Positions 44,026 through 60,957 of a stretch of 64,000 nt of DNA are shown here, piece after piece. Both the position numbers and the translations under genes were made by a program. Origin of the DNA: an uncultured delta proteobacterium (GTDB lineage: Bacteria > Myxococcota_A > Polyangia > Polyangiales > Polyangiaceae); contig CAWJCS010000006.1 of the NCBI GenBank assembly GCA_963841435.1, forward strand, positions 384,001 to 448,000, given 5' to 3'. The notes beneath the pieces are model-generated. The model saw only the letters and a list, made by a program, of their open reading frames with translations, had not been told where the DNA came from and made no database searches. Position 1 is the first letter of the stretch. Every line of letters begins with the position of its first letter.

Positions 44026-44182
44026 CCGGTTACAAGCATGGCACATCCGAGCGCCCCCGGGGCGGGCGTTTCCGGCGAGCACGGAGCGCTCGACGGGCGC
44101 GTGGCTCGTTCGTGTCACCGGCGGGCGCCGCTTTTCGCGCGGAGCATCGACGGGGGGCCGTGTTTTTGTTAGAAGCCGCGAC

Positions 44183-44752
44183 GTGACGACCAAGCACCGC
44201 TTGCTTCGATTCCGCTGTACTGGCTGCGGCAATTGCTGCAAAGACCCCCTCTTGCCGCTCACGGACGCGGACGCGAAGCGTATCGTGGCGCGCACGGGGG
44301 AGCCACCAGAGACGTTCCTTCGCTGGGTGGACCGCCACGGTATCGAGATGGGCGACGAGCCCGAGGGTTTCGTCTCGCTGCGCCAGGGCAAGCGCGTGAT
44401 GGTGCTCCGGCACGGGCGTAACGGCTGCCACTTCCTCGGCTCCGACAATCGCTGCACCATTTATTCGAGCAGGCCGCTCGGCTGCCGCATCTTCCCGTTC
44501 GACCCGACCTTCAACAAGAAGGACGGTAAGCTCCGCCATCTGACGCTCATTCAGGCCACGGACTGCAAGTACGAGCTCGACGGCAAAAATGACGTTGACG
44601 ACATGCGCGCGCTGCACCAGCGCTACGAGGCAGCGACCGAGGCTTACCAGGACAAGATCGCGCAGTTCAACAAGCAGCAGGCTGCTCGCAAGCGCAGCGG
44701 CAAGCGTCCGGGCACGGCGCGAAAGTTCCTGGAGTTTCTGGGGCTCACGTGA
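44183..44752 (+). CDS. YkgJ family cysteine-cluster (CxxCxxCC) protein
   Basis: [14 protein letters not shown] and [16 protein letters not shown]. Confidence 0.88.
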
Positions 44753-45285
44753 CGGCCGGGCCGCCGAGCCATCTCGTGCTCACGGCGGTCGGCCCCGACC
44801 GACCCGGGCTAGTGAACGCCATCTCCGCGGTCGTCCACGATGCGGGCGGGAGCCTGCAGGACAGCCGCATGGCAATCCTCGGGGGCGAATTCGCGCTGCT
44901 GTTGCTCGTTGCCGGGCCAGAGTCGGCGATCGTCGCGCTCGAAGGGGCGCTGCCGCGCGTCGAGGGCGAGCTCGGTTTGAAGCTGCTCGCCAAGCGGACC
45001 CACACCGAGGAGCGCCACGACTACCTGCCGTACTCGCTCCGCGTGACCGGCATCGATCGGCCCGGCATCGTGCGCGTCGTGAGCGAGCGCCTCGCACGCC
45101 GCGGCGTCAACGTGGCGTCGCTCGAATCGCGCGTGACGTTCGCGCCGCTCAGCGGGACGCCGCTGTTCTCCCTCGAGGCCGAGCTGCAGGTGCCGTCGGC
45201 GACCGCGCTCGCCGAGCTGCGCCGTGAGGTCGGTGCGCTGTCCGACGACGAGAACCTCGACGTGACCCTCGAAGCGACGCGCTGA
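44749..45285 (+). CDS. gcvR: Tandem ACT-domain protein (GcvR-like)
   Basis: Two ACT domains (GPDRPGLV...DSRM; GIDRPGIV). Confidence 0.82.
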   Translation: MTAGPPSHLVLTAVGPDRPGLVNAISAVVHDAGGSLQDSRMAILGGEFALLLLVAGPESAIVALEGALPRVEGELGLKLLAKRTHTEERHDYLPYSLRVTGIDRPGIVRVVSERLARRGVNVASLESRVTFAPLSGTPLFSLEAELQVPSATALAELRREVGALSDDENLDVTLEATR

Positions 45286-45289
45286 GGTC

Positions 45290-45410
45290 GCGGGCCCGGC
45301 GCTCGGGTCGGCGCGGCCTCGACGCGCTCCGCCAGGTCTTCGAAGCCGCGCATGCAGCCCGGCCCGCACACGCTCGCGACGCCGAAGCTTGCCGTCACCG
45401 GGATGCTCCG
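45290..45410 (-). pseudogene. Possible remnant of a GGDEF-domain C-terminus
   Basis: IPVTASFGVA...FEDLAERVEAA resembles the end of diguanylate cyclase domains. No GGDEF core upstream. Confidence 0.45.
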
Positions 45411-45618
45411 GCGTCTTCTCCGTGGCTGCCGTGGGTAGGGCCATGAGGGGCTCTATCGGCAAGAGCGGCCCCCCCTCGGCCAGCGTTGAGCCCCGAGCGT
45501 CGCAATTTGCCTCGATCGGGTAGGACTGGTTCCGCGAAGCTCCGTCACTTCCACTCGAGGCGGGCTGTCGGGCCACCATTCCCCGCGCGAAAGGCGAGAT
45601 TGGGGCTATCCCGCTCGA

Positions 45619-48600
45619 TCAGGGCGCCGGCGCAGCCTCGCTAGCGGGTCGCGGCCGGCCCCAGGCGAAGCGCAGGTACAGAGACGGCAAAACGAACAGG
45701 TTCAGCAACGTGGAGCTCACGAGGCCACCCAGGATCACGAGCGCCATGGGGTGCTCGATCTCGTGACCGGGCCGCGCGCCGGCCACCACGAGGGGGACGA
45801 GCGCGAGCGCCGTCGTGAGCGCCGTCATCAAGATGGGCGCGAGGCGCTCCTCGGCACCCCGAAGGACGAGCTCGCGGCCAAAGCCGACCCCCTCGACGTC
45901 CTCGAGGTGCTTGAAGTGGCTGACCAGCATGATGCCGTTGCGCGCCGCGATGCCGAGCACGGTGACGAAGCCAATCAGTGTGCCGAGCGAAAGGGTCCCG
46001 CCAGACAGGGCTGCCGCCGCTACTCCGCCGACGAGCGCGAACGGGAGCGTCGCGAAAGCGAGCAGCGCGAGGCGTAGCCTACCGAGCGCGGTCAGGAGCA
46101 CCACGAAGATCGCAACCGCCGCGCCGGCCACCAGCAGGCGCATGCGAGCCGTCGCCTCGCCGAGCTCGCGATGCTCGCCCAAGAGCTCCGCGTGGTAGCC
46201 GCGCGGAAACGCGATGCCCCCGAGCTTTGCCTCGATCTCCTTGGCCACGCTGCCGAGGTCGCGGCCGCGAACGTTGCAGCTCACGTCGAGGCGCCGTGAG
46301 GACGCCTCGCGCTTGATGGTGCCGGGGCCGCCGCCGAGCCGTACGCGCGCGACGTCGCGCAAGCGGACCGCGCCACCGCTGGGAGTATCGACCAAGAGGT
46401 TCGAAAGCGCGGTGACGTCGCTCTGCCAGCGCCCCTCACCCCGGACCACTATGTCGAACACGCGTTGGCCTTCGACGATTTCTCCGACCTTGTGGCCCTT
46501 CACGAACGTCGCCGCCTGGTGGCGGATCGCGTACGGAGTCAGCCCGAAGCGCTGGGCCGCCGGGAGATCCACGTCGATCTCGAGCTGCGGGATGGGGGCG
46601 AGCGGCTCGACCTTGAGGTCGGCCACGCCGGGGATGTCGCTCAACAGGCCGCGCACGCGGGTGGCCTCGGTGCCGAGCGTGTCGAGCTCGGGGCCGAACA
46701 CTCTGACGACCAGGGAAGCACTGCTGCCCGAGAGCACCTCCTTGATGCGCTCGCGCAGGTACGTGAGAACGTCGCGGTAAAGCCCGGGGTAGCCGTCGAC
46801 GACCTCCTGAATGCGAGCCAGCGTTCCGTCGTAGTCGGCCTGGGCGTCGACGCTGATCCAGAGCTCGGTGAAGTTGATGCCGACGACCTCGTCGGCGACC
46901 TCGGCGCGCCCGATGTGAGAGCCGAAGTTTCGCACCCCGGGGATGGCGCGTAGCTCCTTGCTCGCGCGCTCGGTGATGCGCACCATCGCCGGGTGCGAGA
47001 TGCCCGGCTTTTCGACCCAGTGCATGAGAAAGTCGCGCTCTTTGAAATCCGGCAGCAGCGAGCTTCCGAGGAACGGGACGATCGCCGCCGCTCCGGCGGT
47101 CAGCGCTGAAAGGCCGCCGAGCGCGCTCCGCGGCCGGTCGAGCAGGCGGGGCAGCAGACGGCGGTAGCGCGCGGCGAGCCAGGCGAGCACCGGGCTCCGC
47201 CGGCTCGCTCTCGGGCGCCGGAGCAGCAAGAAGCACAGCACGGGCGTGACGGTCAGGGCCACGAGGAGCGACGCGGACACGGCGACGATGTACGAGAGTG
47301 CCAGCGGCCGGAAAAACGCCCCCGAGAGACCCTCCATCATGAACACGGGGACGAAGGCGAGCACCACGATGAGGGTCGCGTAGACGATCGAGCCTCGAAT
47401 TTCGAGTGACGCGTCGACCACGATGCGAAACGCCGACCGCTCCCGATCCTCGGGGGACGCGAGCTTGAGGCGCCGGATGATGTTTTCCACGTCGATGATG
47501 GCGTCATCCACGACCTCGCCGAGCGCGAGCACGAGACCTGCGAGCACCATCGTATTGATGGTCTCTCCTCGCCACCTCAGCACGAGCCCAGCGGCCAAGA
47601 GCGAGAGGGGAATCGCGACGGCGCTGACGAGCGCCGTGCGCCAGTCGTAAAGAAAGAGCAGGAGCACGAGAATGACGAGGGCGCAGCCGAGCCACATCGC
47701 CGTGCTCAGGTTGTCGATCGATTCTTCGATGAACGTCGCGGGACGAAAGATGGTCGAATCCACGTCGACGCCGCGCAGCGCAGGGCGCAAGGCGGTGAGG
47801 GCCTTCTCGACCTCGCGCGTCAGCTCGAGCGTGTTACCCCAGGGTTGCTTCTCGACGATGAGCAGGAGCCCCGGCCCATCGTTGATCACGGCGTCGCCGA
47901 TGAGCGGCTGGTGCCCCTCGGTCACGCGGGCGATGTCTCCGAGGCGCAAAGGAGCACCCTCCGCCCGCGGAACCACGACGTCCGAAAGCGACGCCACGTC
48001 GTGGACGGCGGGGAGGTGCAAGACGTTCAGTCGCTGATTGGGGGTTTCGACGAAGCCGCCGCTGCTCGGGCGCGTCGCCTCGCCGGCCGCGCTCAGCACC
48101 TGGTCGAGCGTGACGCCGTGCGCGGCCAGGCGCTCGGGCTCGACCAGGACCTGCAGCTCGCGGTCGCGCTGGCCCCAGATCGCGACGTTGGCGACGCCGG
48201 GCACCGCCAGCAGCCGCGGGCGAACCGTCCAGCGCGCGAGCGTCGAGAGCTCGATGAGGCTCATCTGCTTGGACGAGAGGCCGATCTTCATCGCGCGGCT
48301 CGTCGACGACATCGGCGAGAGGATCACCGGAGGGCGCGCCACCTCGGGCAGATCCGACCTGCGCGAGCTGGACGCGTTCCTGCACGACCTGGCGCGAGCG
48401 CAAAAGGTCGGTGCCTCGCGGAAAGAAGAGCTCGATCGAGGAGAGGCCCGGGACGGACTTCGAGCGCACCTTCGTGACCCACGGCGTCCCGGACAGCGCG
48501 TCCTCGAGCGGCACGCTCACGAGCGTCTCCACCTCGAGCGCCGAAAGGCCGGGGGCCTCGGTCTGGACCTCGACCCGGGGCGGGGCAAACTCGGGGAACA

Positions 48601-48709
48601 CGTCGAGCGGCGCTCCGCGTAGCCCGAAATAGCCGAAGATCAAGAGCGCGGCGGCGCAGGCGACGACGAGGACGCGCCCCCTGAGCGCCGAGGCCACGAG
48701 CCAGCGCAT
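45619..48709 (-). CDS. CusA/CzcA-family RND efflux permease (one frameshift near 48355)
   Basis: [45 protein letters not shown] and [12 protein letters not shown]-terminus and remainder lie in different frames. Confidence 0.92.
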
Positions 48710-48731
48710 CAAGTGCCCACCTCGCCGACGT

Positions 48732-49925
48732 TCACTTGCCGGCTCCGAACTCGGTACCGAAAAGCTCCGCGACGCCGGCCGTGACCACGCGCGCACCTTC
48801 GGAGGGGCCACGGTTCAGCACCGCAAGCCCTTCGTGAACCCGCTCGAGCTCGACCCGAACGCGCTCGAACTCGTGGGCCGCTCGCTCGACGTAAACCCAC
48901 GCGCCGCCGAGCACGTCGTAGACGATCGCCGAGTAGGGCACGACGTGGCGCTCTTCGCCCCGTCCGAGCAAAGGCAGCCTGAGCGCCACGCGCTGCCCCG
49001 GAGAGAACTTCATCTTTGCGTTGTCGATCTCGTAAAACAAGCGCGCCGTGGCCGTGTTGGCGTCGCCGAGCGCGGGCGCCGGCACCGGCACGGCGGAGAC
49101 GGGCGCCGGGCCCACCGTCCCGCCGAGCGACGTGAGCGCCGCGGACGCGCCGCGATCCACGCGCTCGAGGTCGCCGACGTAAACGGGGACTTCGACCCAG
49201 AGGTGGTCGAGCTCGGCCACCTCGAACAGCGGAGCCCCTGCATTGACGCTCTGCCCGCCCGTCGCGTGCAAGCGGACGAGCACGCCATCCTGGGGCGCTT
49301 TCAGGGCCAGGCTCACGTCCGAGGTGAGCGGGCTGCCGCCGCGCAATTGATCGAGGCGCGTCTGCGCGGCCTCGAGCTCCGCGTTGGCCATGCTGCTTTC
49401 CGCCTGCCTCGTTTCGAGGGCGGGCTGGTCACCAGCGCCCTCTTTGCCGAGCTCGGTGAGCCGCTCGACCTGGCGTGAAGCCGTCGTGGCGCGCGTGCGG
49501 GCAAGCTCAACGTCGCGGCGCGCCTCGGCTTGGAGGTTTCGATGCGGCGCGACCAGCGGCAAGAGCCGGAAGACGACCTGGCCGGCCTTCAATGCCGCGC
49601 CGGGCATCGGCGAGCTCGCCCCACGCTGCCCGGCGGACAGCACGCCGGCGACAGGCGCCTGGATGACGCTCGATCGCCCCGGGCGGGCGATGAGGTCGCC
49701 CACGGCCGCGAGGGTCTCCGGCAGCTTTCGGCGTTCGACCGGAGCGGTTTGAAGGCCGAGACGCGCAACCTGTTGTGCCTCGAGCTTGAGCCACGAAAGC
49801 TTGCTCTCGACGGGGCTGGGCTTTTTCGGCGGGCTGGCCGCGGCCGTGTCCTTGTCGCCGCGACACGCCACGAGCCCGAGCGCGAGCGCGCAAAATACCA
49901 GTAGTTCTCGGCTACATCGCAGCAT
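48732..49925 (-). CDS. RND periplasmic adaptor (membrane fusion protein), lipoprotein
   Basis: Lipobox LVAC, IQAPVAG and LKAPQDG lipoyl halves, VPYSAIVYD..G..WVY. Confidence 0.9.
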   Translation of the reverse strand: MLRCSRELLVFCALALGLVACRGDKDTAAASPPKKPSPVESKLSWLKLEAQQVARLGLQTAPVERRKLPETLAAVGDLIARPGRSSVIQAPVAGVLSAGQRGASSPMPGAALKAGQVVFRLLPLVAPHRNLQAEARRDVELARTRATTASRQVERLTELGKEGAGDQPALETRQAESSMANAELEAAQTRLDQLRGGSPLTSDVSLALKAPQDGVLVRLHATGGQSVNAGAPLFEVAELDHLWVEVPVYVGDLERVDRGASAALTSLGGTVGPAPVSAVPVPAPALGDANTATARLFYEIDNAKMKFSPGQRVALRLPLLGRGEERHVVPYSAIVYDVLGGAWVYVERAAHEFERVRVELERVHEGLAVLNRGPSEGARVVTAGVAELFGTEFGAGK

Positions 49926-51237
49926 CGAAGTCCTTTCCGACCGCCCGCGACAGATCCGCGAGGGCACGTCGTGCCTGGGCGTCGAGCTCGGCTTCGCGGC
50001 CTTCGGCCTCGACGAGCCGGCGTGTCGCGTCGAGCACGGCGAGGTGGTTGGTCGCGCCAAGCTCGAACGCGCGCTCCGCGAGCGCGACGTTCTGCTCGCG
50101 CGGCTCGCGGACGAGGCGGGGCCAGCGCTCGAGCGCATCGAGTGCTTGAAGCGCGCCCGTCCGCGCGCGCTTCACCTCCCAGTTGACGCGCTGGCGAACC
50201 TCGAGGTAAGCGTAGCCCGCACGCTCGACCTCGGCGCGGGCGTGCATCCGCCCGGCCCCATTCCAGTTGAACAAGGGCAAGGTGACGCTCACGCCCGGCC
50301 CCATCTCGAAACCTTCGGTGCCCTTCTGGTTGGCGTCGAGCACGGCGCTCAGCTGGAACACCTCGGCCGTGGCGAGCCCGGCGCGTCGCCCGGCCGCTTC
50401 CAGGCGCAGCTCGGCAGCCCGCAGCTCCGGGCGTGCCGCGCGGGCGAGCCGCAACAGCTCGGGCTCGTCCGGCAGCCGCGCCGGCATCGGCGCGACCGAA
50501 AGCGGAACCGAACGCGCTGGCGCGAACGAAAGCACGTACTCGAGCCGCTGCCGCGCGAGCACGACGTCATGCTCCCGCTGATCGGCGTCGAGCGCCGCGG
50601 CGGCCGCGTCGGTGCGGATCCCGCGCGCCTCGAGCTCGTTGATCGCGTTGGCCGCGAGACGCACGTCCGCGATGTGGGCGATGCGCGTCCACACTTTGCG
50701 TGCCTTGTCGCCGAGGGCTCGGCGGCGTTCGGCCTCGACAGTACCGATGAAAGCGAGCCGCGCCGCGTGGGCGACGCCGAGACCTTCCTCGACGAGGTCT
50801 TCGGCGACACTTTCGACGTTCAGCTTGGCGATGGCCACTCGCCCGGGCCGCTTCCAGAGAAAGCTGATGTCCCAGCTCGCGGTGAGCTCGAGCTGCTTGG
50901 GTCCGAGCGGAAAGAGCAGCGAGAGCACGGGGTTTGGCAGTGCGCCGGCGGCTTCGAGCTCGGCGAGCGAGAACCCGAGGGTCGCAAGGCTCGCCTGAAA
51001 GCCGGGGTTGTTGAAAAGTGCAATCGCAACGGCTTCGTGAGTGGAAAGGCCGTCGGCGACGCGCACCGACTTCGGAAGGTTGCCGCCTTCTCCCGGGCGT
51101 GAGCGCGGGCTCGAACCGACGCGGTCACGCAAGGACGCGCCGACGTCGGCACGGTCGCGGGGACTCTGCGGTGAGCAAGCCAGCGCAGCGGCGGCTAGAC
51201 CGTAGGCAAATAGGTTGGAAACGCGAGGGCGTCCCAC
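49912..51237 (-). CDS. TolC-family outer membrane efflux protein
   Basis: Lipobox ALAC, EAVAIALFNNP, LPNP, ARPEL and VTLPLFNWN. Confidence 0.88.
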   Translation of the reverse strand: MGRPRVSNLFAYGLAAAALACSPQSPRDRADVGASLRDRVGSSPRSRPGEGGNLPKSVRVADGLSTHEAVAIALFNNPGFQASLATLGFSLAELEAAGALPNPVLSLLFPLGPKQLELTASWDISFLWKRPGRVAIAKLNVESVAEDLVEEGLGVAHAARLAFIGTVEAERRRALGDKARKVWTRIAHIADVRLAANAINELEARGIRTDAAAAALDADQREHDVVLARQRLEYVLSFAPARSVPLSVAPMPARLPDEPELLRLARAARPELRAAELRLEAAGRRAGLATAEVFQLSAVLDANQKGTEGFEMGPGVSVTLPLFNWNGAGRMHARAEVERAGYAYLEVRQRVNWEVKRARTGALQALDALERWPRLVREPREQNVALAERAFELGATNHLAVLDATRRLVEAEGREAELDAQARRALADLSRAVGKDFDAAM

Positions 51238-51302
51238 TCTCGGTCGACTAACCCGAGGGACCCGCCCGCCGCAACGGAAACCGGTGTTGTCCGCTTGGAG
51301 AA

Positions 51303-52139
51303 TCAGTCCTCGTTGCGCGCCCCGTCGTTTTCGTCATGGCCGTCGCCGTCGCCGTCGCCGCAGCCGCCGACCTCCTCGGGGGCGTTGTGTTCCGCGATCG
51401 CCATCGGACTCTCTGCGTCAACGGTATTTTCTGGGCCCTGGTCAACACAGGCCACCCCCGTCACGGAATCGACGCCGTTGTCGCATTCGCCGTCCCCGCT
51501 CGCGACGTCCGGCTCGTTCGTGCAAGGGGCCCCGCTGCCCATGATCGTGCCGTTCACGCATTCACCCGGGTTGCCGTCAGCGTGCTCTCCGTCGGCGCCG
51601 CCCCAATCGCCTGCCTCACAATGCATGTCACCGTCGTCGTCGATGCACGGCTCGCCGGAGCCTTGGACGACACCGTTGACGCACTCGCCCACCTCGCCCT
51701 CGCCGCCGGCTCCTCCAGCCCCCACGCCATTCGTGCTCGAAATGAGGAGCATGCTCACGGGAGCGGATGGGAAATGACGGACATGGCCCAGCGAGACCCT
51801 GACATTTCGTGAGGTGACCGCGAAGGTGGTGTCGAGGGTGCCGCTCGTTCGTGGGAAGACGATCGGCTCGCTCGCGCCGTCGAGCACGACCTGAAGACGG
51901 TAGGCGTGGCCACTCGCGAGAGGCAGCCGGAAGCCGCCGTCGGGAGTGACTTCGGAGGTCGTCACGGAACCCGCGTCCGAGAGGCCTTCCACGGCCGAGG
52001 GTGCGGTCGGAAACGAGTCGAGGACCAGGGTCCCTGCCACCGTGGAATCGGTGCCTCCCGAAACGTCCTTGCCACAGCCGAATGTCAAAACCAGCGCCCC
52101 GCTCATGAGAAGCGCGCTTCCAACGTTCTTGAGGGTCAT
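51303..52139 (-). CDS. Hypothetical lipoprotein with three GECxNG...GxxC repeats and acidic tail
   Basis: Lipobox TFGC, AAGGA SD, first gene of the efflux transcription unit. Confidence 0.8.
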   Translation of the reverse strand: MTLKNVGSALLMSGALVLTFGCGKDVSGGTDSTVAGTLVLDSFPTAPSAVEGLSDAGSVTTSEVTPDGGFRLPLASGHAYRLQVVLDGASEPIVFPRTSGTLDTTFAVTSRNVRVSLGHVRHFPSAPVSMLLISSTNGVGAGGAGGEGEVGECVNGVVQGSGEPCIDDDGDMHCEAGDWGGADGEHADGNPGECVNGTIMGSGAPCTNEPDVASGDGECDNGVDSVTGVACVDQGPENTVDAESPMAIAEHNAPEEVGGCGDGDGDGHDENDGARNED

Positions 52140-52172
52140 CGCCGTGTCCTTTGCTTCGATCGCCTGCCCTCA

Positions 52173-52199
52173 TTGGCCCCCGCGAAGCGGAACCTTCAC
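52173..52199 (-). promoter_or_regulatory. Putative ECF-sigma promoter 1 (GTGAAGGTTCC-N10-GGCCAA), efflux unit
   Basis: Same motif and spacing as at 52305 and 54751. Confidence 0.7.
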
Positions 52200-52304
52200 C
52201 TTCCGCATGATCTCTTGCCAGGGCTCGAGGCACCATTCGGCAAGGAGCCTGGGCGCTCGACCGAAGGCATCGGTCCTCGTCTAGGGGCGGAAAGATCGTC
52301 GTTC

Positions 52305-52331
52305 GTGAAGGTTCCCGGGGTGAGCGGCCAA
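52305..52331 (+). promoter_or_regulatory. Putative ECF-sigma promoter 2 (GTGAAGGTTCC-N10-GGCCAA), lipoprotein/Rieske unit
   Basis: 11-bp perfect inverted copy of 52189-52199, with the same GGCCAA at the same distance. Confidence 0.7.
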
Positions 52332-52348
52332 ATCCGTGCGACGAAAAA

Positions 52349-52915
52349 ATGCCACGCAGTCCCATTTCGAAGGCAACGCCCAGCGCGGTCTCCGTGCTCC
52401 TATGCGTGGGGGGTCTCATTTCGGGCTGTGGGAGCAAGGGAATTACTCCGGACGGCCGAAACGGCTCAGGCACGGCGACCGGAACCATCGGCGGGCGGGC
52501 TTACGACGCAGTCGCGGATGCGCGTTGGATTGGCGCTCCCGACGACCCCGTCAATACCCGCGTCATCTACGTCTTCGACAAGCTCGTGAGCTGCGATGCC
52601 TTGAGCGACACCGGCTGGGACGAGGCCGTGACCGATCGGACCCAGTCGCTCGAAATGAAGCTCATCGGCAAGGTCGCCGGAACGTACCCGATCGCACCGA
52701 GTGGGCGGCCTGCGACGGGCGAGGCGACCGCAAATTATACACTCACGTCCACGAGCGCGACCCCTGCGGAAATGTCGGCAAGCGGCGGCGGCGTGACGGT
52801 CGACCAGTTCCTGGACCGAGCGGCTGCCGATGGATCTTTCGATCTGACTTTTCCGGACGGCTCCGTCTCGGGCACCTTTCATGCGACCTTTTGCGCCACC
52901 GGCCACGAGCCCTGA
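52349..52915 (+). CDS. Hypothetical lipoprotein (beta-rich)
   Basis: Lipobox ISGC, C-terminal GSFDLTFPDGSVSGTFHATFC. Confidence 0.75.
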   Translation: MPRSPISKATPSAVSVLLCVGGLISGCGSKGITPDGRNGSGTATGTIGGRAYDAVADARWIGAPDDPVNTRVIYVFDKLVSCDALSDTGWDEAVTDRTQSLEMKLIGKVAGTYPIAPSGRPATGEATANYTLTSTSATPAEMSASGGGVTVDQFLDRAAADGSFDLTFPDGSVSGTFHATFCATGHEP

Positions 52916-52925
52916 GCGAGTCCAC

Positions 52926-54161
52926 GTGCCTGAGCGCTGCATCACCAAGTCGGCTCTCGTCGGACTACTCGTGGCAACCGTCGGGTGCGGCCAGGCGAAC
53001 AGCGGGACGCCTTCGGTGTCCCCAATGGCCGCGTGCCCTCGAAACGGTGTTGTCGTGGCCGAGGCGCGAGACGTTGAGCGTGACGCCGAGGGCGTTTCCT
53101 ACTCGGTGTTCGGGGAATATCCGACTCGCGAGGCCGACTGGGTGCGCGCCGGCGCCGTGCTCGGGCTTCTCGAGGACGTTTGGGCGACCACGACGAAGAA
53201 GTGCTCCGCGCTTCCAAGCGAAACGACCGATGCGATCGATGCCGCGCTTTCCACCCTGGACACCGCGATTCCCGCCCAGGATCAGCAAAGCGCCGCGTAC
53301 GCCGGAAACGACGTCCACCTCGCGATGACGGGCCTATTTCAGTACTTCAACCCAGAAACGCCCGTCGAGATCGTGCGCATGGACGCCACGTTCCTGCGGG
53401 CCGGCATCGACGCACACTTCGGGGATTGGTCGGCGTATGCGGATGACCTCGCGTCCCTGCAGACCGATTGGGCCGCCCTGAAAGCGGCGGCCGAAGCGAA
53501 GGCCCCCACGTGCCATCGTGTGGCGGGCACTGAGTCCGTGGTCGGTGACGTCGACGACACGTTGGCCGCGATGGGCGGCGCTGGGGGCTCGGACGCCGTC
53601 ACCATCGAGAGGGAAGCCGATGCTGGCTTGCTCGAGGTGGACATCCTGGAGTTGTTGTTCGACTGCCCGGTGGATGGTGTGGCACCGAGCTCCGGGCTCG
53701 GCTCCCAGTGCTCCGCGAAAAACGACTGCCAAAGCGGCGAAGTTTGTGATCTTGCCAACGCCGGCGGGCGGTGTGCTCCCGACCCCACGAGCACCAACGT
53801 CGGTGCCTCCTGTGCCACCACGATCGACTGCGGCAACGATCCTCGCGACGCTTGCAACAACGAGGCGGGCGACGGCTATCCGGGCGGGTACTGCACCATG
53901 GAGCCGTGCAACGACGTTCAGGTGTGCTCCCCCGGCGCGACGTGCGTTTCGCAACCTTTCGAAACACCCGCGTGCATGCAGAGCTGCACGACGGACAGCG
54001 ACTGCCGCGTCGGCGAGGGCTACGTCTGCCAGCTGTTTCCGAGCTCGCCGCCGAGCGGCTTCGGGCCTTCGGATCACGCCTGCTCTTTCCCTTGCGGGAA
54101 GGACGAAGATTGTACGACGCCGCTGAAATGCGGCGTCCCCTCCGGGAAGTGCGTGCCCTGA
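52926..54161 (+). CDS. Hypothetical lipoprotein: duplicated acidic helical domain + Cys-rich C-terminus
   Basis: Lipobox TVGC, two DW...W helical repeats, C-terminal PGGYC...C and CTTDSDCR Cys-rich modules. Confidence 0.8.
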   Translation: MPERCITKSALVGLLVATVGCGQANSGTPSVSPMAACPRNGVVVAEARDVERDAEGVSYSVFGEYPTREADWVRAGAVLGLLEDVWATTTKKCSALPSETTDAIDAALSTLDTAIPAQDQQSAAYAGNDVHLAMTGLFQYFNPETPVEIVRMDATFLRAGIDAHFGDWSAYADDLASLQTDWAALKAAAEAKAPTCHRVAGTESVVGDVDDTLAAMGGAGGSDAVTIEREADAGLLEVDILELLFDCPVDGVAPSSGLGSQCSAKNDCQSGEVCDLANAGGRCAPDPTSTNVGASCATTIDCGNDPRDACNNEAGDGYPGGYCTMEPCNDVQVCSPGATCVSQPFETPACMQSCTTDSDCRVGEGYVCQLFPSSPPSGFGPSDHACSFPCGKDEDCTTPLKCGVPSGKCVP

Positions 54162-54163
54162 AG

Positions 54164-54718
54164 TTGACGTTGGAGCTCTTCGGTCTTTCTCGCCGGTCGC
54201 TGCTGCTTGGGGTCGCCGCCTGCACGGCCTGCGGTGCGCAGCCACCATCGGGGCCCGAGCCCGATTGCGTCGCACCATCCGCGGGCGAAGCGCTGCCGTA
54301 CTGCTTGCTGTCCGTCGAACGAGTCCGCGTCCTCGGCGGTGCCAAACTTGCCGTCGGTGAGGCGACGCTTTGGAACGTCAACGACGCGACGGCGGTCATT
54401 TTGGCGCGAGACGAGCTGGGACTCTTTGCACGCTCTGCGATATGCCCGCATGCTTGTTGCGTGGTGGCACTTTGTACCAATGTTTCCTGCGGAACCCTCA
54501 CGCCCTCCCCGGGAGCGTGCGGCTCCTCTGGCGTCGTCCGGCCCGATCCGGCCGGTGGGATCATCTGCCCCTGTCACGGCTCGATGTTCCGGCTCTCCGA
54601 TGGAGCGGTTCTCAGCGGCCCGGCTCGATCGGCCCTTCGCGCGTACCAGGCAACCGTGGACGAAGCCGACGCCTGGGTCGACACGGGGACCATCGTTGAT
54701 CCCCAAACCCGCGCCTGA
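54164..54718 (+). CDS. Rieske [2Fe-2S] domain protein with twin-arginine-like signal
   Basis: SRRSLL, box I CPHACC, box II CPCHGSMF, GAVLSGPA..AL. Confidence 0.88.
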   Translation: MTLELFGLSRRSLLLGVAACTACGAQPPSGPEPDCVAPSAGEALPYCLLSVERVRVLGGAKLAVGEATLWNVNDATAVILARDELGLFARSAICPHACCVVALCTNVSCGTLTPSPGACGSSGVVRPDPAGGIICPCHGSMFRLSDGAVLSGPARSALRAYQATVDEADAWVDTGTIVDPQTRA

Positions 54719-54750
54719 CCGGGGTCTTCGTGCCGATCGTGCCCGGAAAA

Positions 54751-54776
54751 TGAAGGCTCCGCGGCGATGCGGCCAA
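54751..54776 (+). promoter_or_regulatory. Putative ECF-sigma promoter 3 (TGAAGGCTCC-N10-GGCCAA), upstream of the sigma's own operon
   Basis: Third copy of the motif with identical spacing, at the position expected for autoregulation. Confidence 0.7.
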
Positions 54777-54896
54777 AAGGAGGCCAGGGACCGACAATCG
54801 TGGAGTCTACCCAACTTAGCGACTCGCACCGGTACCAGTCCGATCCGGACTTCGCACCACCCCACTGGGGCCCCGCCGCGGGCACACGCCTTCCTC

Positions 54897-55805
54897 GTGA
54901 CGTCGCTGCTCGTCCTACTCGGTGGGCCCGCCCGCGCTTCCGATTTGAAGGCGTGTACCGAGGCGCGCGTGCAGATACAGGGAACCATCGGCGGCGCTTG
55001 GGAAACGGCGCTCGAGCAAGCGTGCAGAGACCTGGCGCGCCAGAGCGATGCGGACCCCGGTGTCACCGTGAGAGTTTCGGCTGACGACGGCGGCATGATG
55101 CTGGAAGCCGCATTGTCCGATGGGCGCGTCGCCGTGCGCCATCTGACACACCCCGACGAGGTGGCGCTGACCCTCGAAGCCGTCACCAGGGTCCCCCGTC
55201 GCGACGAGCCACCCGCGCAACCGCGCGAGCGCGCGCCCGCCATGCCGCCGGCCGAAACGAAACCACCCCCTGCACCCGAGGTCGCGCATCCCGCCTCCGG
55301 TCCTTCTGTCGAGGTCGGGATGACCACGATGGGCCGCCTCGCCCTACCGGGGTACGGGGCTTTGGGAGGCGAAATGTGGGCGCAGCTCCAGGTGTCCGAA
55401 TGGAGCGTCGCTCTTGCCGCACGCTGGGATGGTCTGGTCCTCCCATTCGGGGAGACCCTGGCGGGGTTCGAAATGGACAGCGTTGGCGCCGGCTTTCTCG
55501 TCGGGCGGCGAGCCCGCCTCGCACCCGCGTTACGCCTCGACGCTGGCGTTACGACGGTCCTTCTCGTCAACGCCCAGAGCGTGCAGGCGCCCGACGGAGA
55601 GCACGCAGGTCAGCAGACCGATCTGCGCCTCGGCGCGTTCGGGCGCGCGCACCTCGGGGGTTCGGCCGTGCGCCTTGCCCTGTCGGTTGAGGCCGAATTT
55701 TCCCCCAGCCGGGTGAGACGGCGCCCGAGGATCGACGCGATGCTGCCGCCACTGCCAACGTATGGCTTTGGGCTCGGATTGGGCGCATCCTGGAGCGGAC
55801 CATGA
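54897..55805 (+). CDS. Hypothetical exported protein with C-terminal beta-barrel-like region (start uncertain)
   Basis: Hydrophobic N-terminus ending PARA, small domain with a Cys pair, Pro linker, amphipathic strands ending FGLGLGASW. Stop overlaps the sigma start. Confidence 0.7.
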   Translation: MTSLLVLLGGPARASDLKACTEARVQIQGTIGGAWETALEQACRDLARQSDADPGVTVRVSADDGGMMLEAALSDGRVAVRHLTHPDEVALTLEAVTRVPRRDEPPAQPRERAPAMPPAETKPPPAPEVAHPASGPSVEVGMTTMGRLALPGYGALGGEMWAQLQVSEWSVALAARWDGLVLPFGETLAGFEMDSVGAGFLVGRRARLAPALRLDAGVTTVLLVNAQSVQAPDGEHAGQQTDLRLGAFGRAHLGGSAVRLALSVEAEFSPSRVRRRPRIDAMLPPLPTYGFGLGLGASWSGP

Positions 55806-56359
55806 TCCGCGGCGCGGGGTTGGACGTGAGCAAGGGGAGGACGCCGGATGATGCGGGCGAGCTGAAGCGCATCACCCAGGGCGACCTCGGCGGGTTGGGT
55901 GAGCTCTATGATCGGCATGCCCGAAGCCTCTATGCATTCGTACGTGCCGCTGCGCCCGAGGAGGACGCGGAGGACATCGTGCACAACACATTCTTGAGAC
56001 TCTTGGCCGTTGCGGGTTCCTACCGGGGTACGGGTGACGCGCGCGCATGGTTGTTCGGCATCGCCGCTCGGGTGATGCGCGAGCGGCGCCGCTCTTTCGC
56101 GAGGTTTGCGCGGGCGGTGGGTCGCTTCGCGGCCGAGCCCCAACCCTCCTCGGAGCCGCCACCGGCGGACGGCATGGACATCGAGCGCGGCCTCCGAAGG
56201 CTGACGGAGAGCAAGCGAATCGTCCTGGTGTTGGCAGAGGTCGAAGGCTTCACGTGCCCCGAGATTGCCGCCATCCTCGAGGTACCGATTGGCACCGTTT
56301 GGACTCGCCTGCACCATGCCCGGCGCGAGATCCGGCGCTTCGGGGGAGGCGACTCGTGA
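55802..56359 (+). CDS. ECF RNA polymerase sigma factor
   Basis: LGELYDRH, DAEDIVHNTFL, AWLFGIA and EIAAILEVPIGTVWTRLHHARR. Confidence 0.93.
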   Translation: MIRGAGLDVSKGRTPDDAGELKRITQGDLGGLGELYDRHARSLYAFVRAAAPEEDAEDIVHNTFLRLLAVAGSYRGTGDARAWLFGIAARVMRERRRSFARFARAVGRFAAEPQPSSEPPPADGMDIERGLRRLTESKRIVLVLAEVEGFTCPEIAAILEVPIGTVWTRLHHARREIRRFGGGDS

Positions 56360-57342
56360 CGCATTCACCGTGCGCGCGAAAGTGGGAGGTGGAAGCCGCG
56401 CGGGACGGTCGGCTCGGCAACGGTGAGCTCGAAGCGTTCGAGAGGCACCGGGCGCGCTGCAGCGCGTGTGGCCAAGAAGCCGGTTGACTGGATGAGCTAC
56501 GACGTACGCTCTCGTCGGCGCGCCCGGCGGGCCTCGACGATGTGACGCATGAACGATTGAAGCGCCGTGTGCTCGACGACGCGAACCGCTCCCTGACGCA
56601 ACCAGCCGAACGGAGGCCTCACCTTTTGGGCATTCTAGCTGCGTCGCTGCTCTTGGCCGGCGGCACTGCGGCCGTCTACTTCGTCTGGAACTCGGCCTTC
56701 CCGCCGCCGTATGCCGTGGAGGCCTCGGCGGGGACTCGCTGGGACGAGCACCTCGCCTCCGGCGTGCACCGAATGCGGCTCGAGGAGGGGACGCTGTCGA
56801 TCCACGTGGCACGCTCGGCCGGTGAGCCGCGTCTCATTGTCGAGGTTCCGGATGGGGAGATCCGGGATATTGGGACGCGCTTCACCGTTACCGTGGCGGA
56901 TGGGAGGACGCGAGCCATCCGGGTTCAGGAAGGCGCCGTCGAATTCCTTCGGCGTCATGGGTCGCTCGTCGAGGTGAAGGCCGGCGCGGCTTGGCTCGGC
57001 GCTGCTCCCGAGGCACCGGTTACGCCATCCGCGAGCGGTGAGATCGCTGCGCCGAATACTGCGCCACCAGAACGTTCCGCTCGGCAGGGCGGTGCAACGA
57101 CGGCAACCAAAGAAACGCCGCAGCGGCCGCGGGGCGGCGCACCGTCCGAGAGTACAGGTAAAAGTAGCCCGAGCGAGGTATCGCAGAACGACGACCATAC
57201 CGGGGAAGACCTTCAGTATCTCCACGTGCTCGCCCTCGTGAGAGAGGGGCGAGTGGAGGAAGCACGCCTTGCAGCCCAGGACTACCTGCGGCGCTTTCCG
57301 CACGGCTTTCGCCGCATCGAAGTCGAAGAGGTGGCCCGGTGA
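56356..57342 (+). pseudogene. Anti-sigma factor (zinc-finger HxxxCxxC + TM + FecR-like + TPR-like end) interrupted by in-frame TGA at 56485-56487
   Basis: HRARCSAC, then TGA, then the same frame continues LDELRRTL... into a TM, the FecR motif DIGTRFTV...VQEGAV and YLRRFPHG. Confidence 0.78.
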
Positions 57343-58103
57343 CCGACACCAGGAACCGCGTTCCGCGCGTCGTGTTCGCGTATTGGGTAATCAAGGTTGC
57401 GTCGACGACGCTCGGCGAGACGGGCGCGGACATGTTCTCGATGAAGCTCGGTCTCGGCTACGGCACGACGATCTTGCTGTTTCTCGGGTTGTTCGTGATC
57501 CTGCTCGGCATGAAGCTCGCGCTGGGGCGCTACACGCCTTCGTCGTATTGGGCGGTATTTACGGCCTCGGCGATCCTGGGCACGGCGCTCTCGGACTTCA
57601 TCGATCGCACCCTGGGGCTCGGTTACGCTGTAGGTGCCGCGTTTCTGCTGGTCTCGTTGCTCGGAACCCTGGGCATCTGGCGCGCGAAGGAGCGCTCGCT
57701 GTCGGTCGAGCGCATCGAGACTCCGGTCGCGGAGCGCTACTATTGGCTGGCCTTCCTGATCGCGAACACGCTGGGGACGGCAGCGGGAGACTACCTGTCC
57801 GACGATCTCGAGCTGGGATTCCTACAGAGCGCGCTACTCATCGCAGGGCTCTTGGTGCTCACGGCACTCGCGCACTATCTGACGAAGATCTCGGGTGTGC
57901 TCCTTTTCTGGATCGCGTTCGTGCTCACGCGTCCGTTCGGCGCCACCTTCGGTGACCTCTTGACGAAGTCCACCCAACAGGGCGGGTTGGACCTCGGCAC
58001 CTTCGGCGCGTCGGCCGCTTTTGCTGCGCTCATGGCGGTGGCGCTCTGGCGGGAGTCCCGCCTGGAAGCAGGACGGGGCTCGTCGGAGCCGAGCGAATAC
58101 TGA
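57339..58103 (+). CDS. COG4705 (DUF347 repeat) membrane protein
   Basis: VP.V...YWVIKVASTTLGETGADM, GTALSD, NTLGTAAGDYL and FWIAFVLTRPFGATFGDLLTK. Confidence 0.9.
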   Translation: MTDTRNRVPRVVFAYWVIKVASTTLGETGADMFSMKLGLGYGTTILLFLGLFVILLGMKLALGRYTPSSYWAVFTASAILGTALSDFIDRTLGLGYAVGAAFLLVSLLGTLGIWRAKERSLSVERIETPVAERYYWLAFLIANTLGTAAGDYLSDDLELGFLQSALLIAGLLVLTALAHYLTKISGVLLFWIAFVLTRPFGATFGDLLTKSTQQGGLDLGTFGASAAFAALMAVALWRESRLEAGRGSSEPSEY

Positions 58104-58111
58104 CCCCTCGT

Positions 58112-58744
58112 TCAGCAAAACGCGGTCGCGTCGGCTGGGCCGCGAAGGAACGCGAGCCGCACGGCTGCTCGCCGAATCGAGCGCGGTCGGGCTCTCGGCG
58201 ACGCTCGAGCCAGGCTCCTCCGCGGACCCGCTTGGTGCTCGCCGATACGCGCGGTGCCCGGGCCGCGCTCGCGCTCATGTCCGACGACCGCGTGCGGCTC
58301 GTGCTGGCGCGAGTGGGCGACGCGCCGCTCGAGGTGACGTTCGAGCGCCGTCAATCCGATTCTGAGGTCGGAGGCGCTGCAGCTCGCGTCGATGCCCGGC
58401 GATAGCTGTCGCACCTGGTCGCACTCGTCGGCGAGCCGCGAGCCGAGCACTCCGAACCCGTACGAGAAGTACAAGCCGACCGTCCACGGCACGAAGCGTA
58501 CGCCCACGTCCACCCAAATCGGCACTTGTCCTTTGAACACGTCGCCGAGCCCCGCCGTGGCGGTTTCGCGCACCTTGCCGAACGGAAACCCGAAGCCGCT
58601 GCGAAGCCCTGCCGCGAAGTGCGGGTCGGAGCTCGGTGGCGCGGTCGCTTCCTCATCGGGCTCGGGCTCCGACTTTTCGAAGGTGCGCGGCCGAGGCTTG
58701 GGCGCCGAGTGAGCGACCGCCACCGAGCCCACGAGAAAGACCAT
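58112..58744 (-). pseudogene. Truncated outer-membrane beta-barrel-like gene
   Basis: Barrel-like strands (GLRSGFGFPFG, QVPIWVDVGVR, VGLYFSYGFG, CSASDLRIGL) end abruptly near 58350 and run into unrelated sequence. Confidence 0.55.
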
Positions 58745-58884
58745 GCACCGGCACCCAACGCCGCTCGAACCCTCTGCATGACCCCTCGATGATGCCACGA
58801 TCCTCACGAGGCTCCTGGCGCTTTTTTACGCTCTTTACGGGCGATGGTTCGAAAGTCCCACGCCGCGCTGAAGCTGGCGTCGCC

Positions 58885-60957
58885 CTACCAGTCCGAGATG
58901 GTGACGCCCGTGCCGATCAAGAGGGTGAGGGAGAGCGGCACCGCGGCGGTGGCGAAGCGCGGGAATCCGGGCTTTCTCGACGCGTAGTAGGAGGCCACGC
59001 CACCGGCGACGCCACCGAGGAGCGAGACGGGCAGCGCTATCAAGAGCGCGCCCCAGTCGCCTCGGGCGCTCATCACCACGAGCGCGAAGCTCCCGACCGT
59101 TCCGCCGACGATGCCCGTGCTGAGCGCGATCACCCGCCCGGCTTCGTCGTTGCGCGTCGCGTAGGCGAGCGCGCCGATCCCCCCGACGACGGCGGTCGTG
59201 ATCCCGAGATTTCTGAGGAGGCGAGGGTGCTCGCGCGCGCGAAGCCAGCCTCTTTCTCGTTGGGAAGAGGTCTCGTCGCAGGCTTCGGCGACGCCGTCCG
59301 GAATCGGTGGAGCGCAAGCCGCTCGATGAAGCTCGTCGTAACCCGACGCCTTGGCGTCTTCCGCGTCGGTCAAAAGCGGTCCGGCGTAGCGACGCAGATC
59401 CTCGCGCGCGTCGAAGAGGGGCGCGACCCACGGGTTGACCTGAGCGCCCCCCGGGCTCTTTTCGAGACCGTACCGGGCGAGCGCGCGGCTCGCATGCCCG
59501 CCGCGGGCAGCGGCAAGCACCGGTACGAATCCTGCCGCAGCGTGACAGAGGTCGCGGCTCCACCCTGGACGCAAGACGCCTCGGCGATCCAGCTGCGCGA
59601 TCAGGCGCTCGCCCCACACGGGGGCAAGCGAGCATAGGGTCCACGCCGCCACCTCCTCGACGTCCGTGGCACCGGGCCCCGTGCGTTGGGCGAGAGCGTC
59701 CAGATGAACTTGGAGCTCCGGGGGCAAGCGTCCCTGCTGCTCGAGCCAATCCTGGCAGGGCCCGCGGCCGAAGCTACCGCCCGAAAGCGCCAGCAGATGG
59801 CTCTGGATGAAGTCCTGATCGGGATGCTCGCTCGCGAGCACGGTGCGAACGTGCTCCATCGCGGCGTCGCAGGGAGTCTTGGGTCGCGTTCCATCGAACG
59901 ACAGCACGAAGAGATGCGCGACGTCCTCAAAAAAAGACTGGTAGGCGACGACGGCATCGCCGCGCCGCGCGACTTGGGCCACGCCGGGCTTCAGGGCATA
60001 GGGGTTCGAAGTGACTCGAACGACACCGCGAACAACGTCCCACAGCACGGCGCCGTACGGCTCGAACAGCACGAACTGTCGCTCGCTCAGCCGCACCGCC
60101 GCGCTGAACTCGCGATGTTCTGGAAACGCGATCCGGCGCGCCTCTACTTTCGGGCCGAGCAGCCAGGCCTCGTTTCGCTCCGTTCGGTCGGGAGCTTGTC
60201 CGCGCGTGAAGAGCAGTGCCCGATTGCCGTAGGCGAATGCCGAGCGAATGTCTTGCTGCGCAAAGGCCATGCTGAGTACCCAGCGGCCGGTCTCGAGGTC
60301 GAGGATGCGTAGCGCCATCCTCGACTCCCCTTTGCGTGCGGACCGCCGCTCACCCACGATCATCGCTCGCCCGCGCCCAAGGTCCGTCACCTTCCAGACG
60401 CAGGAGCCGTCAGCGTCAACCGTGCGCTTTCGAAAGGTGCGCGTGGCGCCGTCGAACACCAAGAGCTCGTTGCACCGGAGGCCCCCGGCCGGTCCGGTAA
60501 AAATCGCCCGGCCGCCGGACACGGCAACCGCGCTGAGGCCTCGGAGATCGAGAGGCGCATCGAGGGGCTCCATGGCGCCCGTGTCGGGATCAATCAAAGC
60601 CGGCTCTCGTGTGAGGACCTTGCCGGAGTCGAGCGGGATCGGACCGTTCCAGCGTTCGCGCGGCACCGTGGTCGGCCGGCGCTCGCCCGTGAGCGGGTCG
60701 ACGATGTCGCACGGCGCGTCCGACTTCGGGCAGGCGACTGCCCGTCCGTCGGCAAGGAAGAAGACCCAGCCCGTATCCGCCGTCACGGCTTCGCTCAGAC
60801 GCCAGTGCGGCTCACCCTGTGCTGCCGCCGTGGCCGGCCAGAGGAAAAGGAGACCGACGACGGCCCCGAGTCGCCTCATCAATCGCGCCAGGCGCGCCCG
60901 GTCGAGCAAGGGTGCGGTCGTCCCAGGGACGACGGCAGGCCACCGACACCTTCCCAT
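58885..60957 (-). CDS. Exported kelch/beta-propeller-like protein with helical and C-terminal multi-TM regions
   Basis: Signal-like LLFLWPATAAA (alternative start 60879), repeated LxDG-like and DPxTG blades, C-terminal hydrophobic Gly-rich helices. Confidence 0.7.
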   Translation of the reverse strand: MGRCRWPAVVPGTTAPLLDRARLARLMRRLGAVVGLLFLWPATAAAQGEPHWRLSEAVTADTGWVFFLADGRAVACPKSDAPCDIVDPLTGERRPTTVPRERWNGPIPLDSGKVLTREPALIDPDTGAMEPLDAPLDLRGLSAVAVSGGRAIFTGPAGGLRCNELLVFDGATRTFRKRTVDADGSCVWKVTDLGRGRAMIVGERRSARKGESRMALRILDLETGRWVLSMAFAQQDIRSAFAYGNRALLFTRGQAPDRTERNEAWLLGPKVEARRIAFPEHREFSAAVRLSERQFVLFEPYGAVLWDVVRGVVRVTSNPYALKPGVAQVARRGDAVVAYQSFFEDVAHLFVLSFDGTRPKTPCDAAMEHVRTVLASEHPDQDFIQSHLLALSGGSFGRGPCQDWLEQQGRLPPELQVHLDALAQRTGPGATDVEEVAAWTLCSLAPVWGERLIAQLDRRGVLRPGWSRDLCHAAAGFVPVLAAARGGHASRALARYGLEKSPGGAQVNPWVAPLFDAREDLRRYAGPLLTDAEDAKASGYDELHRAACAPPIPDGVAEACDETSSQRERGWLRAREHPRLLRNLGITTAVVGGIGALAYATRNDEAGRVIALSTGIVGGTVGSFALVVMSARGDWGALLIALPVSLLGGVAGGVASYYASRKPGFPRFATAAVPLSLTLLIGTGVTISDW

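Follow-up and report, generated by a model that had tools for sequence, protein, structure and literature searches.

Cell-surface signalling by FecI, FecR and FecA needs a TonB-dependent receptor. In these systems (ECF239-243) an extracytoplasmic function (ECF) sigma factor is encoded in one unit with a single-pass anti-sigma factor bearing a periplasmic FecR domain and with an outer-membrane partner gene, an arrangement shared by the locus described here. By description, the nearest group to our sigma factor is ECF267 (Casas-Pastor et al. 2021, PMC7826278), which the part of that classification covered here assigns to Sorangium and Chondromyces (Polyangiaceae), with a FecR-like, TPR-bearing anti-sigma factor at position +1 and without a TonB-dependent receptor; a FecR-like factor at +1 and the lack of such a receptor are also found here. 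The same source gives 'no conserved promoter' for the Polyangiaceae/Myxococcales groups ECF210, ECF216 and ECF267. We have analysed a stretch of 64,000 nucleotides (the window) from an uncultured delta proteobacterium of the Polyangiaceae (GenBank assembly GCA_963841435.1, contig CAWJCS010000006.1, positions 384,001 to 448,000), in which an earlier note, made from the sequence alone, had pointed out three copies of a bipartite motif. These three copies are very probably the cognate -35/-10 promoter of the resident ECF sigma factor (55802-56359) and would drive three local units.

The copies were confirmed at 52173-52198 on the minus strand (P1) and at 52306-52331 (P2) and 54751-54776 (P3) on the plus strand, and all three lie between genes and are oriented toward their genes, as had been claimed. 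P1 and P2 stand back to back with their -35 boxes 108 bases apart; P2 faces lipoprotein B, and P3 begins 32 bases past the stop codon of the Rieske gene and heads the barrel-sigma-anti-sigma-DUF347 operon and would be the autoregulatory copy. P1 had been described as directed toward the efflux unit. Its orientation is correct, but its first gene is lipoprotein A (51303-52139), with the efflux genes 65 bases behind, so that they would be reached by read-through. Scanning the window at up to two mismatches gave these three copies and no fourth, and 100 shuffles of the window gave a mean of 0.05 matches (largest 1, none reaching three); a chance repeat was rejected as a reading of the motif, as was the end of a repeat element. 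No promoter-like site was found in a sigma-70 consensus scan from 45000 to 59000, terminators were listed neither between lipoprotein A and the TolC gene nor between the Rieske gene and P3, and the GC profile showed no clear island.

The earlier note had proposed scanning the whole genome and the regions upstream of orthologous sigma factors. In the genome (7,783,927 bases) the exact pattern with gaps of 8-12 occurs only at the three window copies; one mismatch in either box leaves the count at three, and one in each box adds a single site (C2:779734). On a matrix built from 39 sites outside the window, the window copies hold genome ranks 1 (P2, 28.1 bits), 2 (P3, 25.0 bits) and 3 (P1, 24.1 bits), and since the next site scores 18.6, 5.5 bits lower, the regulon in the source genome is local. 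The note's pattern was nevertheless too long: the YTCC tail of its 10-base -35 box TGAAGGYTCC is kept at only 1 of the 39 sites in relatives, so the box is TGAAGG, and the longer version was rejected as over-fitted. The conserved element is TGAAGG-N13-CGGYCAA, the consensus of the 39 sites, with the core TGAAGG-N14-GGYCAA. Among 401 genomes of the order, two have the note's exact pattern, one of them the source genome; the other copy (L146, G215:C51:6044-6069) belongs to another family, lies on a contig without such a sigma factor and is probably due to chance.

The evidence that carries the promoter reading comes from relatives. A relative of the sigma factor at E<=1e-40 was found in 52 of the 383 genomes of the family, the source genome included, with only eight candidates scored per genome. 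Loci of up to 20 kb were taken around 55 of the 58 matches (only the window's own match and the Labilithrix match, both already available, were passed over), and a second paralogue of the source genome and one motif locus without a sigma factor were added; the named loci with the closest sigma factors belong to Labilithrix luteola and to Polyangiaceae or Myxococcota bins, and in L. luteola DSM 27648 (L002) the motif precedes an operon of lipoprotein A, barrel and sigma genes. A tree of 59 sigma factors splits them into clade A (29, the window included) and clade B (30) with support of 100/98. When all spaced pairs of 5-mers in the 2.2 kb upstream of clade-A sigma genes were ranked, the window being excluded, GAAGG-15-GCCAA came first, at 16 of 26 loci against 0.12 expected. 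The core TGAAGG-N14-GGYCAA was counted 29 times, in 21 of 28 clade-A loci, and is absent from the 30 clade-B loci, whereas TGAAGG-N15-GYGAA was counted 33 times, in 23 of 30 clade-B loci, and twice in clade A. The spacing is fixed, the alternative spacings of the clade-A core (10-19) giving 0-1 sites in clade A and other spacings 0-2 overall.

The 39-site set was chosen by pattern, one coding site in L130 and the CGAAGG sites outside L130 and L140 being dropped. With a simple gene caller, 38 of the 39 are intergenic, and the genes behind them are mostly those that follow the motif in the window: lipoprotein A comes first behind 13 sites, the barrel gene behind 8, lipoprotein B behind 3, the sigma gene behind 2, DUF347 behind 1 and other genes behind 12. 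Back-to-back pairs recur at three further loci (L100, L112 and L098). A bipartite motif with a fixed spacer thus stands upstream of the sigma operon and is conserved in orthologues, as expected of an autoregulatory promoter. Across whole genomes a refined pattern matched in 24 of 25 clade-A genomes (55 sites, 8 for the reversed control), a count that is partly circular since about 29 of the 55 are training sites; where the sigma factor found was of clade B, 6 of 26 genomes matched, with 6 sites against 10 in the control. The clade-A sigma factors at L130 and L140 carry GTVGSRLHH in place of GTVWTRLHH, and their autoregulatory site starts with CGAAGG.

The resident sigma factor itself fits the -35 box, and its fit to the -10 box is weaker. 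Its region 4.2 reads G164-T-V-W167-T168-R-L-H-H172, and both region 4.2 and the -35 box are common to clades A and B. W167 and T168 were placed on Arg171 and Ser172 of RpoE by the spacing in Table S1 of Todor 2020 (PMC7776599). In Dataset S3 of that study, Trp at Arg171 goes with a preference for -31G (0.92) and Thr at Ser172 with one for -34G (0.74), in agreement with T-35 G-34 A A G-31 G-30. The clades split at sigma residues 66, 90 and 94, which by alignment are K56, N80 and N84 of RpoE; in the parts of the same source covered, K56 and N84 are given as determinants of the -10 box, and for N80 a contact at -11 is cited. The source also gives Glu at Asn84 as favouring -13C (0.74 summed) and Arg as slightly favouring -13G (0.34), preferences that would fit the C/G switch between the clades if the switching base is -13. 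This covariation was examined in held-out loci, 80 from metagenomes reduced to 35 non-redundant ones with >=1250 bases upstream, using a pattern neutral at the switching base. Sigma factors with Glu94 had three C-type sites, no G-type site and three loci with none, and those with Arg94 had 16 G-type, one with both, no C-only and 12 with none, four of the latter having a degenerate TGAAGG...GAA upstream at the same spacing. The switch thus tracks Glu/Arg at the Asn84 position without a pure counter-example. In the source genome the GTVWTRLH helix occurs in 3 of 65 sigma-like open reading frames (ORFs), and only the resident sigma factor belongs to clade A. Taken together, footprinting, clade-specific distribution, the held-out loci, the fit of region 4.2 and the lack of another sigma factor of the same clade in the genome back the earlier note's assignment of the motif as the cognate promoter, on sequence grounds.

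Several points weigh against this assignment. The exact core is missing at 7 of the 28 clade-A loci, of which two have <700 bases upstream, three have a one-mismatch copy in place and two have none, and three of the six held-out Glu94 loci lack a site. The contrast between clades A and B is essentially one evolutionary split, so the covariation counts are not independent; the matrix and the whole-genome pattern were derived from the same loci and are circular, a fault from which the pair search and the held-out loci are free. In the ECF11 background, in the parts of the Todor study covered, -13C is favoured by many residues besides Glu and Arg shows weak selectivity, and the spacer looks one base below the 16-18 of that study if GYCAA is aligned as in RpoE. 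The pyrimidine-purine steps, which peak 8 bases after the motif in clade B (27 of 36 sites) and only weakly at 8-9 bases in clade A (9 and 14 of 39), point to another -10 register. Of the 25 distal genome matches examined, 14 overlap called genes and are probably chance matches. Finally, an RND pump lies near the sigma gene in three relatives and no motif heads the pump genes in any of the three, so the pump is a local member of the regulon by inference.

We propose that region 4.2 would read TGAAGG and that region 2 would read (C)GGYCAA 14 bases on, with transcription starting 8-10 bases after GGCCAA, that is, near 52165 for P1, 52340 for P2 and 54786 for P3. A cue, probably passed on through the co-encoded small outer-membrane barrel, would cause the membrane anti-sigma factor to free the sigma factor, which would then transcribe its own operon from P3 in a positive feedback. 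Of the back-to-back pair, P1 would serve lipoprotein A and the CusA/CzcA-like pump, and P2 would serve lipoprotein B, lipoprotein C and the Rieske protein. Sister sigma factors reading the same -35 box would be kept apart by the -10 box GYGAA. The earlier note had held that the motif ties the three units into one system. This stands in so far as a promoter heads each unit, but the pump is joined to it only by the putative read-through behind lipoprotein A.

The genes behind P1 lie on the minus strand. Lipoprotein A (278 amino acids) has an acidic, Gly/Cys-rich tail and is followed by a TolC-type outer-membrane efflux protein (49912-51237; PF02321, 4.7e-24), an RND periplasmic adaptor (48732-49925; TIGR01730 above cut-off) and an RND permease (45619-48709), which is frameshifted near 48350 in the assembly. 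The best model for the permease is of the CusA/CzcA heavy-metal type (TIGR00914), with 545 bits against a cut-off of 701, scored on the 907-amino-acid part after the frameshift. Behind P2, on the plus strand, are lipoprotein B (52349-52915; 188 amino acids), lipoprotein C (52926-54161) and an exported Rieske [2Fe-2S] protein (54164-54718, start approximate; PF00355, 2.7e-7). The lipoprotein labels were judged by eye from a signal peptide and Cys pattern, and none of the three matches Pfam. Lipoprotein C consists of tandem four-helix bundles and Cys-rich repeats and has no clear known function: a fold search gave no Foldseek match at E<=0.001, its best VIA Z, 13.1 to NasR, is inside the generic range for helical bundles, and the best ESM Atlas scores, 0.87 for lipoprotein C and 0.81 for lipoprotein A, are leads only.

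The operon behind P3, also on the plus strand, begins with a secreted barrel protein (54897-55805, 5' start uncertain) that combines an N-terminal alpha/beta domain, a Pro-rich linker and an 8-stranded barrel of the OmpA/OmpX type. Its predicted structure has a mean pLDDT of 91 and matches Ail, OmpA and NspA at E ~1e-6. At the 5' end of the gene, a start at the in-frame GTG at 54897 leaves a short signal peptide, and a GTG at 54800 lies in another frame, perhaps through a further indel error. The sigma factor (185 amino acids) matches PF04542 and PF08281 above cut-off and TIGR02937 with 57.2 bits against a cut-off of 42.9, and contains regions 2 and 4 only, as in ECF (group 4) sigma factors, which are about 180-200 amino acids long. 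The anti-sigma factor (56356-57342) has an HxxxCxxC zinc finger, one transmembrane (TM) helix, a FecR domain (PF04773, 3.6e-7) and a helical, TPR-like end, and is followed by a DUF347 membrane protein (57339-58103; PF03988, 3.2e-57). In two other loci (L093:106-780 and L095:1137-1811) the anti-sigma genes are without a FecR domain but have the zinc finger, TM helix and C-terminal helices.

As regards the content of the regulon, the 29 clade-A loci contain lipoprotein A in 18 cases, lipoprotein B in 11, lipoprotein C in 7, and the Rieske and DUF347 proteins in 5 each; lipoprotein A, which most often comes first after the motif in relatives, is found in none of the 30 clade-B loci. Conversely, a TonB-dependent receptor family is present in 25 of 30 clade-B loci and in none of the 29 of clade A, clade B driving such receptors instead. 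Eleven of the 25 distal matches examined are intergenic and ten of these face a gene; among the genes faced are a GMC/GH3/inositol-phosphate-synthase operon and those for PAP2 and phosphoesterase proteins, a glycosyltransferase, a metallophosphoesterase-like protein, a di-haem peroxidase and others. At L185 (1154-5915) an operon for a GMC oxidoreductase, GH3 and inositol-1-phosphate synthase lies directly behind the motif, and homologues occur near the sigma gene in L097 and L110.

Our best guess at the signal, and a tentative one, is divalent-metal or envelope stress. A possible but rather doubtful alternative, which concerns the signal and leaves the promoter untouched, is envelope-lipid or phosphate stress with the pump as a passenger. 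It would account for the PAP2 phosphatases, phosphoesterase, metallophosphoesterase-like protein and glycosyltransferases behind the motif in relatives, and for the VTT/YdjC, CDP-alcohol phosphatidyltransferase, FadL and inositol-phosphate-synthase genes also found there. However, the best RND model is CusA/CzcA, DUF347 is present in 5 of 29 clade-A loci and the tail of lipoprotein A is acidic and Cys-rich. The phosphatases would fit metal precipitation as well, since DUF347 is described, in the part of the source covered, in lead-induced operons with UppP and has been proposed to be a metal exporter (PMC4531530).

A second alternative is that the promoter is genuine but the circuit is broken in this strain, the sigma factor being unregulated and the pump dead. 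The anti-sigma gene has an in-frame TGA at 56485-56487 (codon 44), inside GTTGAC, and all other anti-sigma genes compared are open at that codon. If this stop and the RND frameshift were real the circuit would indeed be broken, which we consider unlikely. In favour of a real stop, in-frame stops are rare, none having been seen in 101 kb of genome alignment with relatives; those at GTTGAC are not enriched genome-wide (2/4692), and a matching soil DNA run (share of 0.09, contigs 99-100% identical) covers other places but not the stop. No RNA run containing the genome was listed. An exact metagenome scan across the stop gave no match, and a search for an independent identical anti-sigma protein found none. 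On the other hand, the ratio of GTTGAC to GTCGAC is 0.544 against 0.159 in relatives, a 3.4-fold excess, with the other 15 contexts at 0.59-1.08; Asn stands opposite an Asp of the homologue in 17 of 59 GTC-AAC codons against 38 of 553 other AAC codons, about fourfold more; and six frameshift junctions occur elsewhere in the 101 kb. A motif-linked assembly error is the likelier reading of the stop, and we hold it with considerable confidence. A recent preprint reports a G-to-A bias at methylation motifs in nanopore data (bioRxiv 10.64898/2026.01.14.699587), and the GTTGAC excess would match this bias if the assembly came from such data. GTCGAC and GACGTC are under-represented in the assembly and one-base variants of both are over-represented, which suggests motif-linked miscalls. 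Elsewhere in the window, spoVR/yeaH-like genes, named by eye, at about 40800-44500 are in frameshifted pieces. At the genome's clade-B paralogue locus (L114, G000:C3:988000-991200) several frameshifts occur and the promoter site is degenerate.

It is very unlikely that the sites, as real promoters, are read partly or mainly by one of the paralogous sigma factors of the same genome, C3:988029 or C5:475250. Both bear GTVWTRLH, the two clades have the -35 box in common, some clade-B sites reach 23.6 bits on the clade-A matrix, and a C-type site is present at one held-out Arg94 locus. Against such cross-talk, both paralogues are in clade B with Arg94, the window sites score 10.6-13.9 bits on the clade-B matrix (training range 19.8-34.8), and the motif is at chance level in genomes whose sigma factor found is of clade B. 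That the motif is instead the site of a DNA-binding activator or repressor travelling with the locus is scarcely credible: bipartite conserved sites need not be promoters, but this one is asymmetric, invariably faces a gene, has a fixed spacer of free sequence, occurs in back-to-back pairs and has bases that track sigma residues, and only a sigma-54 activator family (6/29) and a histidine-kinase-like family (7/29), both named by eye, recur with clade A.

With the sites taken as promoters of the resident sigma factor, the other lineages give a wider picture. In clade B (L109-L144, for example L118:4154-6697), TGAAGG-N15-GYGAA precedes a TonB-dependent receptor that is fused to TonB_C and weakly similar to MxcH, and also the barrel gene, often in two copies per locus. 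An Arg94 subgroup (L256, L258, L269 and L266, which may be close kin) carries TGAAGG some 1000 bases ahead of the sigma gene with GGAGAA or GGAGAG after it, a candidate for another -10 variant, and a distant paralogue with the same -35 helix (L001 956-985, in the record of L106) has a back-to-back TGAAGG-N14-GGYGGA, a further variant. The promoter search gave nothing consistent for more distant paralogues with other -35 helices. We regard it as possible, if somewhat short of probable, that these loci form an undescribed, expanded Polyangiaceae family of trans-envelope ECF switches. Its members would share a -35 box and be insulated by a -10 code of one to two bases that depends on a few region-2 residues (Glu94 with CCAA, Arg94 with CGAA, and the variants GGA and GAGAA), clade A responding through the barrel to an envelope or metal cue without a TonB receptor and clade B running TonB receptors.

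An autoregulatory ECF promoter is as such an ordinary kind of element. Since the family, with at least 651 close sequences, shares a -35 signal and differs in the -10 signal, its target genes should be predictable, and a precise promoter makes these regulons testable. The clean C/G switch between sister clades offers a natural test of how paralogous ECF sigma factors avoid cross-talk, the clade pairs may be a source of orthogonal sigma-promoter pairs, and the promoter could serve as a read-out for the putative replacement of a TonB receptor by a small barrel. The motif was not found in the literature searched, with Todor Datasets S1-S2 (the promoter collection) and the rest of the classification supplement outside the search: TGAAGG is not in the eight Todor supplements covered, although Datasets S1-S2 may hold it, and GGCCAA is not in the covered part of the classification supplement. 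A search for literature on myxobacterial FecR/ECF cell-surface signalling also found none, and in the literature searched ECF267 is mentioned in the classification paper and one unrelated paper only.

Comparison with described groups, as given in the parts of the sources covered, places the system near several without merging it with any. Two traits of ECF267 are found here, namely the FecR-like anti-sigma factor at +1 and the lack of the TonB receptor family (0/29 in clade A), and the TPR element may be represented by a conserved helical C-terminus, with a below-cut-off YfiO match in one clade-B homologue only. In contrast, the ECF267 context includes 1-3 protein kinases, whereas of the 29 clade-A loci, many of which are shortened by contig ends, one has a kinase motif at a distance of up to 9 kb; the ECF267 promoter is described as not conserved and that of clade A is strongly conserved; and the zinc finger and small barrel gene are not mentioned for ECF267 in the part covered. 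As the kinase context and the non-conserved promoter differ, we have set the sigma factor apart by group description and not filed it under ECF267. The published negative for its promoter may reflect the small size of that group. ECF253 (promoter TTTGAAGGG / CGTCTAA) has a similar -35 box but a different -10 box, taxa and gene context.

CnrH (ECF291) and CorE/CorE2 (ECF238) likewise control local regulons that include metal-efflux genes, according to the parts of the sources covered. CorE-type sigma factors have a Cys-rich tail and have been searched for with an AAC -35 motif, whereas the resident sigma factor has one Cys (152), no extension and the TGAAGG box; a CorE-type metal sigma factor was rejected on the lack of a Cys-rich C-terminal extension. 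CnrH has a conserved link to its efflux operon, whereas in clade A the pump is not conserved. Dma1/Das1 of Bacteroides (PMC10927553) also connects the outer membrane with an ECF sigma factor independently of TonB; in the part of that source covered, Dma1 is one polypeptide across both membranes and limited to Bacteroidota, whereas here barrel and anti-sigma factor are separate genes and their contact is putative. With respect to FecIRA, clade A has an 8-stranded barrel where the TonB receptor would be and a zinc finger on the anti-sigma factor. By analogy, the system would work like an autoregulated ECF sigma factor with an envelope-spanning anti-sigma factor. What is new in comparison is the promoter and its clade-specific -10 code. 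The fold of the barrel is confirmed by structure prediction, and its binding to the anti-sigma factor is putative.

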